Source: an uncultured cyanobacterium (GTDB lineage Bacteria > Cyanobacteriota > Cyanobacteriia > Cyanobacteriales > Cyanobacteriaceae). From it: DNA of 64,000 bases. Below are positions 36,272-40,507 of this stretch, one piece after another; the stretch's first letter is position 1, and each line of letters opens with the position of its first letter. The stretch is from contig CAVVOP010000008.1 in the NCBI GenBank assembly GCA_963749915.1, forward strand, positions 128,001 to 192,000. The letters run 5' to 3'. The position numbers and the translations under genes were made by a program. The notes beneath the pieces were generated by a model. That model had not been told where the DNA came from. It did no database searches and saw nothing but the letters and a program-made list of their open reading frames with translations.

Positions 36272-37066
36272 ATGGTTCAATCTAATGAAGAAGGTTTCAA
36301 CTCTAACACTGAAACCATCGAGATTCAACAAACTAAACTTAATCAGAAAGTCGATAAAATAGGCATTTTTGGCCTTAATATGTTGCGATCGCTCGGTTTA
36401 TGGCGATTAGTCGGTTATGCTTTCTTAATCTTATTTATTCTAGATTTAGCGGAAATATTGATCCCCCCTCAATTTCTTAATCCAGAATGGGAATTTCAGG
36501 TATTTGGCAACATTGTCGAAAGAATAGCAATTCCCTTTATTGCCTTAATATTAATCTTTTACGGGGGCAACTATCTACGCAAAGGATGGGAATTTATTGT
36601 GTTAACAAGCCTATCATGGCTTAGTTTATCAGTGGGGATATTATTTCTCTTATCCGTGCCTTTGGGGATAGTAAATACTATCCGCATTGATAATTTAAGG
36701 GACACTAGAATTACAGAAGGGACTACACAAAGACTAGAAGTTTTACAAAAAGTGGAAACCAGACTAAAAGATGTACAAAATAAACAGGATATGCAAGTCC
36801 TAATTAATCAACTTAATAGTGGAAATGCACCTGTTATCGAAAATGATCAACAATTAGCACAAGTCAAGACTAACTTAACAGAATTTATCAAAAATTCCCG
36901 TGATCGACTAAATAATCAAGCCGAGAATGCTCGTAAACAGGGCAGAAAATCTTTGTTAAAAAGTTCTGTAAAATGGAATTTAGGTGCCTTAATATCTGGC
37001 ATTTTATTTATTATGATATGGCAAATGACTAAATGGGCGAGAGTAAAGGAAAAAACTAGCAATTAA
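36272..37066 (+). CDS. HpsJ-like membrane protein
   Basis: ILIPPQFLNPEWEFQVFGNIVER, PLGIVNTIRI, LLKSSVKWNLGALISG. Confidence 0.8.
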   Translation: MVQSNEEGFNSNTETIEIQQTKLNQKVDKIGIFGLNMLRSLGLWRLVGYAFLILFILDLAEILIPPQFLNPEWEFQVFGNIVERIAIPFIALILIFYGGNYLRKGWEFIVLTSLSWLSLSVGILFLLSVPLGIVNTIRIDNLRDTRITEGTTQRLEVLQKVETRLKDVQNKQDMQVLINQLNSGNAPVIENDQQLAQVKTNLTEFIKNSRDRLNNQAENARKQGRKSLLKSSVKWNLGALISGILFIMIWQMTKWARVKEKTSN

Positions 37067-37084: not shown

Positions 37085-39571
37085 TTATTTATTATCCATG
37101 GTTTTGAAGCCGAATTTGACCTTTAGGTTTTGATCGACTTCGGCTATTTTGCTAATATCAATTCCTTTATTCTTTGCTTCTTTTAAGGCTTTTTTGTCTG
37201 CTGTATAATTCACTTTTTCCGTGCGATATTCTGGGGGTAATTCTTCAGGTTTTACCTTAATATTTATCCGAGGATACTCCCTAAATATTAAACTTCTTTC
37301 TTTTCCTTCCTCTTTTTTGCTTAAGATTTTTTGTTGATATAAATTTAATAATCTTTTTTGTAATAACTCCTGTCCTTTTTTTAATTCTTCTACTTGATTT
37401 TGCAACATTTCGTTAACTTTTTTCTGCCTGGCATTAGCACTAGTGATGGCTAATTCATATTGATCATTTATCCACGCAAAACCATCTATATCGGTATCTA
37501 ATTTTGCCAATAAAGAGATAATTTTTTCCTCATCATCATTGTCCATTAATTGTTGCCAAATTTGAGCCGCTTTTTCATGATAATTTTGATGTAAGGAAAT
37601 GACAATATTATCGATTTTTTCCTCTTGATTGTGACCAATTTGTTCACCAATTTTTTCTAAGGATTCATGATAGTTTAGATTAGATAAATTCTGATTTTGT
37701 TCTAAATTATTATTAACCCAATTTTCCTTAAATTTGCGTAAATATTCTTGATAAAGGTTTAAGATATTGACCGATGATTCCATTTTTCTTTGTCGATAAA
37801 TTTGTCTTAATTCTCCCAATAATGCCCAGCGATGATCGAGATCCAAACTTAACTCTAAAAACTGCTTAAATTGTCGATAAAATCGGCTTAAACGCTCATC
37901 TAAAATATTTTTCGAGACATTTGATGTATTTTCTAAAATGATTTTTACTTGCTCTAAATTAGTTTCTCCTTGTAAATAATTAATGATTTCTTGGGCAAAA
38001 GCTATGGCAACTTTTTCCACAGATAAAAAATGATTATGAGGTAAAAAAACTGGAAAAGCGAGAGAATTAAAACCGCTACTATCCGCTAAAGTTAGACAGC
38101 GATTAATGATGGTTTTAACTAAGTTTAAGTCCGTTAATTCTGGATTTTGATATTCATAAATAATACTATGAAAAATCGCTTCTATTTTTAATTTTCCTCC
38201 CCTGGTAGTTAAAATTTGTCCTAATTGTTTTATTTTCCTTTTTTCTAACTCTTTACTGATACTTTTACCACCCTTAGTGAGCAAAATTCTGGCAATATCT
38301 TCACTCATGGACAAATCTATGTCAGTATAGTTAACTAAAACCTCAACATTACAATTAATCAAGGAATTATATTCAAGGATAAGTTGAGTATTAGCGATGG
38401 TAGTTTCCCAGACGAGATTAGTAAAATTTTCGGGAGTTTTAGGGGAAATAACAGGAGGGGGAGGATTAAAATCTAAACCTTGTAAATTTTGCCAAGTTAA
38501 GGGTAAACTGGCAGGATTTTGACAGATAATAGGCAACCAAGTAGCACAAGGAAATTGAGTTTCAAGGGGTTGCAACTTTTCTCTGGCTTGTCTGACAGCT
38601 AAATATAAAGGTTGATTATCAGCAAAACTTTGTAAAAATTCCTTGATAAAAACGTGGGCAACGGTATCAGGTATCATTTCTCCCATGACTATAATTTGGG
38701 ATAGGTGTAAAGCGACTAAATCTTGTGCTAATCCTAGGCCATCACAGGAGTTAAAAATAGCCAATTTTAAACCTTTTTGAATCGCCTGTTTTAAGGCATT
38801 CTTAAATTCTTCAATGGTGATAATATCTTCTTCATTTAGATATAATTTACCTTGCCATGTTTCTTCGTTTTTACCACTATGCCCCGCAAAAAAAAGTACG
38901 TCCCATTGTTGTTCATAAAGATGGTAAAATAATTCTTTGGGACTAGGATTAGTTAAAGTAATTATTTCCGCTTTTTGTAAATTACTTAAAGCTTCCTGAT
39001 CGGGTTTTAAATTGATGCCTTGACTATTGCCAAAAACTGCTAAAATTTTAATGTGAGAGCTTTGTTTTATGGTTAAATTTAAAGTGGTATACTCCACAGG
39101 AGCGATAGCTAATTCCGCCTTATTATATAGATTAAGAAAGGAATCAAAAAATAAATGCCAAGGTAAAAAATGCAACTCTTTAATATTAGTCTGAATCAAA
39201 AGTCTAATAGATTCTTGAGTGTTTAATTCTCTTAATAATGTTTCCCTAATTTTACCGAAAGATTCGGTTTCACAGTGATACCAATTTCTTAAAGTTTCCT
39301 TGAGTTGAGAGGCGGAGATTTGACAATGATTAGTAACGTGAGTAATCTGTTGTTTGGGGGATCCTAATCTTACTTTTTGATGTAAACTGCGATAACTTTC
39401 CCGCCATTGTTGATAATGTTGGGTGATAGGTTTACAGGGGGGAAGTTTTCCGGTGATGGTCGTAAAAGGATGAGTAATACCATCGGGATTATCTTCACAA
39501 ATTTGTAAACTGACATCAAAACCATTAAGGAAACTGCCCGATTCTAGTTTGAAAAGAATTAATTTACCCAT
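37085..39571 (-). CDS. CHAT protease - Macro-like - siphovirus Gp157-like fusion protein
   Basis: CHAT: FFAGHS, IFNSCDG, CATWLPIICQNP. Macro: VLVNYTDIDLSM..IA..LLTKGG, TRGGKL..IFH, SLAFP. Gp157: IDGFAWI...EGKERSL...PPEYR...ADKKALKEAKNKGIDISKIAEV...VKF. Start set at MGKLIL. Confidence 0.78.
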   Translation of the reverse strand: MGKLILFKLESGSFLNGFDVSLQICEDNPDGITHPFTTITGKLPPCKPITQHYQQWRESYRSLHQKVRLGSPKQQITHVTNHCQISASQLKETLRNWYHCETESFGKIRETLLRELNTQESIRLLIQTNIKELHFLPWHLFFDSFLNLYNKAELAIAPVEYTTLNLTIKQSSHIKILAVFGNSQGINLKPDQEALSNLQKAEIITLTNPSPKELFYHLYEQQWDVLFFAGHSGKNEETWQGKLYLNEEDIITIEEFKNALKQAIQKGLKLAIFNSCDGLGLAQDLVALHLSQIIVMGEMIPDTVAHVFIKEFLQSFADNQPLYLAVRQAREKLQPLETQFPCATWLPIICQNPASLPLTWQNLQGLDFNPPPPVISPKTPENFTNLVWETTIANTQLILEYNSLINCNVEVLVNYTDIDLSMSEDIARILLTKGGKSISKELEKRKIKQLGQILTTRGGKLKIEAIFHSIIYEYQNPELTDLNLVKTIINRCLTLADSSGFNSLAFPVFLPHNHFLSVEKVAIAFAQEIINYLQGETNLEQVKIILENTSNVSKNILDERLSRFYRQFKQFLELSLDLDHRWALLGELRQIYRQRKMESSVNILNLYQEYLRKFKENWVNNNLEQNQNLSNLNYHESLEKIGEQIGHNQEEKIDNIVISLHQNYHEKAAQIWQQLMDNDDEEKIISLLAKLDTDIDGFAWINDQYELAITSANARQKKVNEMLQNQVEELKKGQELLQKRLLNLYQQKILSKKEEGKERSLIFREYPRINIKVKPEELPPEYRTEKVNYTADKKALKEAKNKGIDISKIAEVDQNLKVKFGFKTMDNK

Positions 39572-39663
39572 ATTTGACAATGAACAGTGAACAATTAATA
39601 AAGACAAAAAGCAATGGATCATAAATAATCAATAGTTGTCAATTATCAATTGTTATTAGTCAT

Positions 39664-40287
39664 TTATGGTAGCAACAAATCTGCACCTCCGGGGGTTGGT
39701 AACACAAAAACAGGAGAAGAATTATTAGGAGTGGGAGTTTCTTTGGGTTTTTCTTGAGGGTTATTTTCGGCATTAGGGTTATAAATACTTACCAACACAT
39801 TGACTAATTCATTTCGTTGTTGCATAGTCAAATTTTCGATGATTTTACGATCGCCACTCAAGGGATTTTGTGTTAAAGTGCTAAAACCCGGATAACGTTC
39901 ATCATTGATAATTTCATTTTTACCGAGATAATCGGCCAAACTTAACTTCCAATCTAAACGAAAAGTCGTAGGTCTTGCTTTAATATATTGATGGTATCGA
40001 ACAATGCGACTAACTAAAGTATTCTCGATAGCTCTTTGATTAGTTTCTTGACTGGTATAATTATTTTCCACAGGAAAGTCAGGTATTTGTTGATAGACTT
40101 CCGCCGCCACTTTTTCAGGGATGATAGTTTGGGCAAAAACAACGGGAGAGTAGGAATAATTTTCCCCGAATAATTGCCCTTGTGGAAAGTTTAGATATTG
40201 ACCAAGATAACTAATAGTAAGGGTGGTAAGTAAAAAAACGGAGTATTTTAAACCTTTAACTCGCCATAATCTGCTTATGTTAGTCAT
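39664..40287 (-). CDS. Conserved cyanobacterial exported hypothetical protein
   Basis: [44 protein letters not shown]; start overlaps the rpoZ stop. Confidence 0.75.
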
Positions 40288-40507
40288 CGCTGATAATTTC
40301 TGGTTGCGTAAGTTCATCGGACATTTCTATAATAGCTCTGAGTACTGGTTTCATCACCTCTTCTATATTCTCAAAGTCTTCTTTTCTTCTTTGTTTCGCC
40401 CTTTTGGCAACGGCCACAGTTATTTTATAACGATTTGATGCCGCATCCATTAATTCATCACTGCGAAACATTATTTGACTGGAATCAAAGCTATTTTTTT
40501 TGAGCAT
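40280..40507 (-). CDS. rpoZ: RNA polymerase omega subunit
   Basis: [17 protein letters not shown]...[14 protein letters not shown]. Confidence 0.95.

Follow-up and report, generated by a model that had tools for sequence, protein, structure and literature searches.

An EACC2-CHAT protease of cyanobacteria with an altered Macro domain and a Gp157-family C-terminus: a candidate sensor of mobile elements

Why does a caspase-like protease encoded on a cyanobacterial chromosome end in a domain related to proteins of phage and plasmid replication modules? The question is raised by a gene on the reverse strand of a 64,000-nucleotide stretch of DNA from an uncultured member of the Cyanobacteriaceae (contig CAVVOP010000008.1 of assembly GCA_963749915.1, positions 128,001 to 192,000; hereafter, the window). 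A first-pass annotation made from the letters of the DNA had read this gene as a CHAT protease fused to a degenerate Macro domain and a phage Gp157-like domain, and had proposed a single-gene anti-phage sensor-effector in which the captured domain serves as decoy or sensor. On sequence grounds, the gene belongs to the EACC2 + caspase (CHAT) family of cyanobacteria, in which a constant protease module is followed by a variable C-terminal sensor part; its new part is a Macro + Gp157 tail placed on this already described kind of sensor-protease. A role as an anti-phage or anti-plasmid sensor is a plausible hypothesis, and the architectural and evolutionary statements made below are much firmer than any functional reading.

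The gene covers positions 37085..39571 (-), i.e., 828 codons and a stop (37085-37087), within a single open frame at 37085..39622 (-). We take the ATG at 39571 (MGKLILFKL) as the right start because M1-G2-K3-L4 are invariant in all 36 aligned full-length homologues, none of which carries the 17 residues upstream of it. An AlphaFold model of the full-length protein, built from 36 sequences, has a mean predicted local distance difference test score (pLDDT) of 77.7, and resolves, from N- to C-terminus, an alpha+beta domain, the CHAT/caspase domain, the Macro domain, a helical hairpin, and a Sipho_Gp157-family domain. Two low-confidence linkers separate these units, one at residues 366-385 (38417..38476 (-); pLDDT <50 over residues 366-382) and one at residues 626-662 (37586..37696 (-); pLDDT <50). 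Mean pairwise identity is 71-72% for EACC2 and CHAT, 62% for Gp157, and 56% for Macro, and falls to 42%, the lowest of the six regions compared, over residues 366-392 at the first linker.

Residues 1-115 (39227..39571 (-)), modelled with strands at residues 2-13, 17-28, and 37-43 and then helices, matched no Pfam family and were read as EACC2 from the model and from homology. Directly behind them lies the CHAT/caspase-like domain (residues ~120-365, 38477..39214 (-)), which matches Pfam CHAT (PF12770) with an E value of 2.7e-13 (50.5 bits vs a cut-off of 24) and whose fold matches are separase, Csx29, and SAVED-CHAT (8tl0). The catalytic dyad is intact as first annotated, since both His231 (FAGHS; codon 38879..38881 (-), within FFAGHS) and Cys276 (NSCDG; codon 38744..38746 (-), within FNSCDG) are invariant in 36 of 36 homologues. 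The first ~365 residues are ~42-49% identical, over ~44-55% of the query, to listed CHAT-CHASE2, CHAT-nSTAND1/AAA_16, and CHAT-pentapeptide proteins, and across the homologues listed the partner that follows this N-terminal module is variously CHASE2, nSTAND1/AAA_16, pentapeptide repeats, or Macro. A CHAT-CHASE2 paralogue in the window's own genome shares 41% identity with residues 1-363, with similarity beginning at residue 1.

A constant "EACC2 + caspase" N-terminal module with highly variable C-termini was described by Kaur, Iyer, Burroughs, and Aravind (eLife 2021, PMC8195603), whose consulted text includes "ADP-ribose-processing macro domains" among these C-termini, names the architecture EACC2+CASPASE+CHASE2, and proposes that the variable part senses stimuli and that the caspase is then activated. 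The protein studied here shares with this family the alpha+beta domain directly before the caspase, the His/Cys dyad, the variable C-terminus with its macro option, and the proposed logic of a C-terminal sensor controlling a protease; our assignment of EACC2 was made by homology and architecture rather than with the authors' own EACC2 profile. It differs in its degenerate Macro motifs, in an extra Gp157-family domain that the portions of PMC8195603 consulted do not mention ("Gp157" is absent from the main text and from 12 of the 13 supplement files), and in its surroundings. According to the same consulted text, a TRADD-N gene, or an extracytoplasmic function (ECF) sigma factor gene with a DUF1822 gene, adjoins the majority of the family, whereas TRADD-N, ECF sigma, and DUF1822 were all absent from the 13 window neighbours and from 40 open reading frames (ORFs) at seven homologous loci. 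The first-pass annotation knew of no described protein with this architecture. That statement stands for the Gp157 addition, as far as the searched text of PMC8195603 goes, but not for the whole protein, and the novelty is restricted to this addition because the EACC2 + caspase proteins with macro domains had already been described. A literature search found no report joining Gp157 with a caspase, none joining a CHAT domain, a macro domain, and anti-phage activity, and no experimental study of an EACC2 + caspase type protease.

Several side observations concern the same module. The gene of the EACC2-CHAT-CHASE2 paralogue (784 amino acids; G000:C22:120357-121457, in locus L055, 5717-12526) stands in an operon with ShlB/POTRA, a 229-amino-acid ORF, DUF1822, and DUF928, which is the published context for the protease family. 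Two proteins of ~740 amino acids (P0041 and P0042, one of them from an Aerosakkonemataceae cyanobacterium) consist of two tandem EACC2-CHAT modules and have no sensor domain.

Proteases with a CHAT fold joined to a sensor part are also found in SAVED-CHAT (PDB 8tl0) and in Csx29/TPR-CHAT of type III-E CRISPR systems. The present protein resembles them in this general plan, but it has neither a SAVED nor a TPR sensor, its sensor part being Macro + Gp157, and no cas gene lies among the neighbours scanned. SAVED-CHAT and Csx29 proteases are activated by sensor-driven assembly, and in clan CD, to which the CHAT peptidases belong, control through proximity or assembly is common.

The first element of the sensor part is the Macro domain, which the model places at residues 386-547 (37931..38416 (-)), in agreement with the span of ~37930-38410 first given. 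Pfam Macro (PF01661) matches it with an E value of 6.3e-9 (36.3 bits vs a cut-off of 22), its best solved relatives by sequence are the PARP14 macro domains (E 2.1e-13) and macroH2A, and its fold matches are macroH2A, PARP14, and the Oceanobacillus iheyensis macrodomains (TMt, a template modelling score, ~0.77); NCBIfam returned ADP-ribose-binding-protein matches only, all of them sub-threshold. Canonical macro domains contact ADP-ribose through GDIT, GGG, and GxG signatures. For all its similarity in fold and sequence to these relatives, the protein studied has NSLI, SED, and LPH at the three positions: slafpvFLPHn aligns to siafpaIGTGn of PARP14, and SMSEDIA and YNSLI align to SMGGGVS and YKDIT/YCDIT, respectively, of the relatives P0038, P0043, and P0045. 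The alterations first reported (GDI to NSL, GGG to SED, and GTG to LPH) are thus all visible in these alignments.

How these motifs are distributed among relatives suggests an order of events. All three are replaced in 31 of the 36 fused proteins, four others (P0034, P0035, P0039, and P0040) have intermediate motifs, and the deep-branching fused protein P0038, 47-49% identical to the window protein, has canonical or near-canonical ones. So do P0043 and P0045, which are EACC2-CHAT-Macro proteins of 613-694 amino acids without Gp157; these two and P0038 retain DIT...GGGV...(A/V)TG. Because both the Gp157-less relatives and a fused protein keep the canonical motifs, the Macro domain would be the ancestral sensor, and its decay would have followed the gain of Gp157. 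Within the clade the new versions of the motifs are conserved in their turn (DLSMSEDI, AFPVFLPxN), and the fold residues F467-H468 and R491-C492-L493 are invariant among homologues, so the Macro domain has been retained, with a changed or lost pocket. Behind it stands the helical hairpin (residues 559-623, 37703..37897 (-), with model helices at 559-594 and 598-623), which matched no Pfam family and aligns also in P0043 and P0044, i.e., in Macro-bearing relatives without Gp157. As a separate observation, two genomes of the same genus encode a second ORF of 639-640 amino acids (G144, C1:348786-349496; G267, C54:17533-18246) that matches only the Macro-plus-hairpin part, at 25-26% identity, and resembles the Gp157-less P0043-P0045 in length.

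The last domain occupies residues 663-828 (37088..37585 (-)) and is modelled as short helices, one helix of ~50 residues, and a beta-rich end. Taken alone, the C-terminal 171 amino acids stay below the Pfam cut-off for Sipho_Gp157 (PF05565; E 0.0046, 17.4 bits vs 28.6, profile positions 7-149 of 162). Membership in the family is nonetheless established by transitive homology, profile, and fold matches. Precomputed PF05565 matches exist for 2 of the 36 full-coverage clusters listed (P0025 and P0040). When 401 genomes of the order were searched in six frames with the Macro-to-end part as the query, there were many stand-alone ORFs of ~170-320 amino acids that match only its last ~160 residues (E 5e-16 to 3e-6), and 14 of the 15 stand-alone cyanobacterial ORFs taken into loci exceed the Pfam Sipho_Gp157 cut-off (34-59 bits). 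An alignment of 10 fused and 15 stand-alone domains (A2), used as a profile against 1.84 billion representatives, finds 1265 proteins at E<=1e-3, nearly all of 150-230 amino acids, and the matches sampled carry PF05565. The domain model (pLDDT 82.3, with the beta-rich end poorly formed in the monomer) has as its best BFVD fold match an unnamed phage protein (E 9e-7, probability 1.00, TMq 0.56, TMt 0.58), and several other BFVD matches are phage proteins named "Siphovirus Gp157" or "Resistance protein". The likeness to Gp157 first noted from the letters therefore holds, even with the domain's own score below the cut-off. Seven residues (W32, D56, A59, G116, P127, P139, and G163 in A2) are invariant across fused and stand-alone domains, which indicates that the fusion has retained the family core.

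Searches for a solved relative of the domain were negative: PDB sequences gave coiled-coil noise only with the Gp157-alignment profile (E 0.6), Foldseek against the PDB gave nothing at E<=0.001, and VIA-align over 48,161 chains reached a best Z of 5.5 in helical segments only. PHROGs, queried with the whole protein and with the C-terminus, returned matches only at E>=0.027, to families of unknown function, and a search for Mu Gam (PF07352) found no match in the genome, but none in the 14 control genomes either, so that it speaks neither for nor against a Ku- or Gam-like binding of DNA ends. Prediction of two copies of the domain gave an interaction score (ipSAE, interaction prediction score from aligned errors) of 0.68 vs 0.00 for the best control; among proteins of solved structure, this mark was attained by 20 of 30 that are pairs of one chain and by 1 of 23 that are single chains. 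At least 96% of contacts are shared among the three runs, with a partner pLDDT of at least 83, and the predicted interface sets the long helices antiparallel (domain residues 58-69 against 87-101) and interlocks the beta-rich ends. The modelling thus supports an intertwined homodimer.

Compared with stand-alone Sipho_Gp157 proteins, the C-terminal 166 amino acids have the same fold and invariant core, and their closest members are ORFs of 170-236 amino acids in cyanobacterial genomes, with named matches on cyanobacterial plasmids; the difference is that the domain here forms the tail of an 828-amino-acid chromosomal protease. Such a fusion is unusual among the best 150 profile matches, where no protein but the representative of this family has a partner domain recognised as enzymatic; six of these matches exceed 300 amino acids, and none but that representative has a second Pfam domain. 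Three long Gp157 proteins of 363-532 amino acids (P0167, P0169, and P0245) have N-terminal repeated helical motifs and low-complexity linkers; no Pfam family matched these extensions, and the ESM Atlas gave no usable match for the P0167 N-terminus.

The fusion itself is real and conserved. It was found at full length in 13 of the 401 genomes searched, namely the window's own genome, 6/6 others of the genus, 3/3 and 1/2 from two sister genera, and 2 that belong to other families, whereas the search of three further genera in the family found no copy (0/5, 0/2, and 0/1 genomes searched). The 36 full-coverage protein clusters listed are 39-100% identical, the named ones being from Geminocystis species and Cyanobacterium aponinum. 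The concern that the fusion might be unique to this assembly is thereby removed, and it is not an assembly artefact. In a tree of 79 rows (the 25 of A2, 51 of 113 representatives of 150-260 amino acids, two copies from the window's genome, and the C-terminus of P0040), which is unrooted and was built by a quick method, all 11 fused Gp157 domains form one clade with a Shimodaira-Hasegawa-like approximate likelihood ratio (SH-aLRT) support of 99, consistent with a single capture. This clade lies within a larger group composed mostly of cyanobacterial stand-alone proteins.

From what kind of element was the domain captured? The first-pass annotation called it a phage domain. This is imprecise, since its nearest relatives lie on plasmids of cyanobacteria: tblastn with the Gp157 domain matched none of 50,697 phage records but 21 plasmid records, all cyanobacterial and including a 32.5-kb Geminocystis plasmid. 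MOB-suite typed 13 of these plasmids as conjugative, 5 as non-mobilizable, and 3 as mobilizable. The neighbours of stand-alone genes include a DEAD-box helicase with primase-polymerase/DUF3987, SSB, a recombinase, a relaxase with NikA, tyrosine integrases, ParB, and DnaN, which agrees with the expectation that Gp157 genes sit in recombination modules.

The window's genome itself has five canonical stand-alone Gp157 genes (67-88 bits; 88-100% mutually identical over their aligned parts), one chromosomal and four on plasmid-like contigs of 22-55 kb, at G000:C8:874190-874711, C12:7602-8012, C10:25449-25847, C15:20123-20569 (with 3 stops), and C13:20203-20550 (loci L059-L069). At least two of these copies directly adjoin an SSB gene. 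The plasmid-like contigs also hold SSB, ParA, integrases, and Tn3 transposases, and in two cases the SSB and Gp157 genes are separated by a group II intron reverse transcriptase/maturase (555-568 amino acids). All five diverge strongly in sequence from the fused domain (BLAST E 0.24).

The chromosomal surroundings of the fusion are of another kind. Its window neighbours are NadA, YchF, a flavodiiron protein, a glycosyltransferase, rpoZ, a DUF697 GTPase, an ABC permease, and an HpsJ-like ORF. At the seven more distant loci none of the 40 neighbouring ORFs scanned recurs; examples are psaA/psaB with crcB, phosphoglycerate kinase, DnaB, a Na/H exchanger, and Hsp90. The claim of a single-gene unit is borne out to the extent that no neighbour is conserved outside the genus, and since no neighbour recurs at the distant loci, the gene would act alone or with partners encoded elsewhere. 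Neither a TIR, an ART, a sirtuin, nor a cyclase was present among the neighbours scanned in the window and at the seven homologous loci. Thoeris type II ThsA is a Macro-sensor effector whose partner TIR protein (ThsB) makes an ADP-ribose-derived signal, and the missing TIR family sets the present gene apart from effectors of this type.

Two adjacent ORFs were considered as partners and rejected. The upstream same-strand ORF P0002 (39664-40317) matches no family and adjoins the gene at only 4 of 12 loci, every one of them within the genus; its start is probably a later ATG, because the long ORF call overlaps the 3' end of rpoZ (Rpb6/omega; 40283-40507 (-), 75 amino acids, E 7.7e-12, 93-98% identical in same-genus genomes). 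The convergent ORF at 36272-37066 (+) (264 amino acids, no Pfam match) adjoins the gene at 4 of 12 loci, one of them in another genus, but it is encoded on the other strand and probably belongs to a polysaccharide locus; its grouping by the ESM Atlas with HpsJ-like, cyanoexosortase-A-associated proteins (score 0.98) serves as a lead only. Scans for regulatory signals were not above chance, with 21 promoter-like sites vs 15.9 +/- 4.0 expected and 2 terminator-like sites vs 1.8 expected.

Taking these results together, we tentatively favour, as a possibility that falls a little short of probable, an immune-type role in which the protein senses mobile elements. The history behind it would probably begin with an EACC2-CHAT-Macro ancestor whose canonical Macro sensor bound ADP-ribose, continue with a single gain of a Gp157 domain that had belonged to the replication/recombination module of a plasmid or phage-like element of cyanobacteria, and end with decay of the Macro pocket in the Geminocystis/Cyanobacterium clade, which may have left Gp157 as the working input domain. 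The intertwined Gp157 dimer would hold two protease modules together, and engagement of its natural ligand would remodel the dimer and switch on the His231/Cys276 protease. This ligand would be the one that stand-alone Gp157 proteins bind; candidates are the Gp157 of the invading element itself, the SSB or replisome proteins that it encodes, and intermediates of replication. Once activated, the protease would cleave itself or cellular targets, and the resulting growth arrest or stress signal would limit the invader. In one particular form of this idea the domain is an integrated decoy: a plasmid or phage Gp157, or a partner of Gp157, would form mixed complexes with the bait and so unleash the protease. 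This more specific version we regard as doubtful.

Several points weigh against an immune-type, mobile-element-sensing role. The order of events presupposes a root, which the unrooted tree does not supply, and the dimer is supported by a model score rather than a measurement. The gene is near-core and vertically inherited in the genus and stands among housekeeping neighbours, which is atypical for mobile defence genes. No family of PADLOC-DB v2.0.0 matched the protein or the upstream ORF P0002 at E<=1, and known defence genes lie within 5 kb at only two of the seven distant loci scanned (a Type ISP restriction enzyme at L036 and BrxL at L041), so that the neighbourhood analysis called for in the first-pass annotation yielded no positive support for an anti-phage role; genomic context neither supports nor excludes an immune one. 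That the genome tolerates five resident stand-alone Gp157 genes means that the mere presence of Gp157 triggers no lethality, and beside this it has to be said that these copies are, by sequence, very divergent from the fused domain. Last, the consulted parts of PMC6157547 and PMC6356513 repeat the Pfam note that Gp157 is a "resistance protein", but the consulted part of PMC6356513 traces the resistance phenotype first observed to an origin fragment that is non-coding, and for this reason we do not adopt a "resistance" role for Gp157.

The alternative that survives best, although we consider it somewhat unlikely, is that of a housekeeping stress-signalling protease whose Gp157-like domain was domesticated and monitors the cell's own replication or recombination (e.g., SSB-coated DNA) and whose CHAT domain processes a regulator. 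It accommodates the presence of the gene on chromosomal contigs in all other genomes of its genus and in 3/3 of a sister genus, the lack of a defence family match, and a synteny of rpoZ, P0002, and the gene that is kept in 4 of 6 same-genus loci; RecJ and an RNase T-like exonuclease adjoin the gene at one locus (L037). It is also in line with the transcriptional output via an ECF sigma factor that the consulted text of PMC8195603 proposes for part of the EACC2-caspase family, but no ECF sigma, DUF1822, or TRADD-N gene adjoins the gene at the loci examined. Moreover, the gene is dispensable, given that none of the genomes searched in three other genera of the family yielded it, and the sensor half evolves faster than the protease half, with the identities of Macro and Gp157 given above below those of EACC2 and CHAT; both observations run counter to a housekeeping function.

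Another alternative, which we judge unlikely, assigns to Gp157 a dimerisation scaffold only and lets the altered Macro domain read some other ligand (a modified ADP-ribose or nucleotide), in the manner of SAVED-CHAT. The tight homodimer predicted for Gp157 would suit such a scaffold, SAVED-CHAT is a fold match of the protease half, and the conservation of the altered motifs in the clade, together with the invariant fold residues, suggests purifying selection on a changed Macro pocket. However, it is with the ADP-ribose-contacting GDIT, GGG, and GxG signatures that the replaced residues align, the conserved neighbours include no enzyme that would produce a signal (TIR, cyclase, ART, or sirtuin), and pure scaffolding is not obviously in need of the invariant core residues of the Gp157 family. 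That the fusion is decaying or inactive and has no present function, as the degenerate Macro motifs might suggest, is very improbable given an intact frame of 828 codons, a catalytic dyad and ~150 further positions invariant across 36 homologues down to 40% identity, and domains that are all modelled as folded.

Cyanobacteria have an abundance of caspase-like CHAT proteases with exchangeable sensor domains, and Gp157 is a common protein of phage and plasmid replication modules; the fusion links this family to a caspase-like protease in one conserved gene and accompanies a visible replacement of an ADP-ribose-type sensor. It also offers a compact and testable system, both for the ligand of Gp157 and for the way in which a bacterial caspase-like protease is switched on. 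If the integrated-decoy idea were true, the protein would be a bacterial counterpart of the integrated decoys of plant nucleotide-binding leucine-rich repeat (NLR) receptors and would give a first functional handle on the widespread Gp157 family. If the immune-type reading holds more generally, a bait derived from mobile elements would join the sensing strategies of bacteria, and if it is wrong, the gene would still represent a clean capture of a domain from a mobile element by a host signalling protein.

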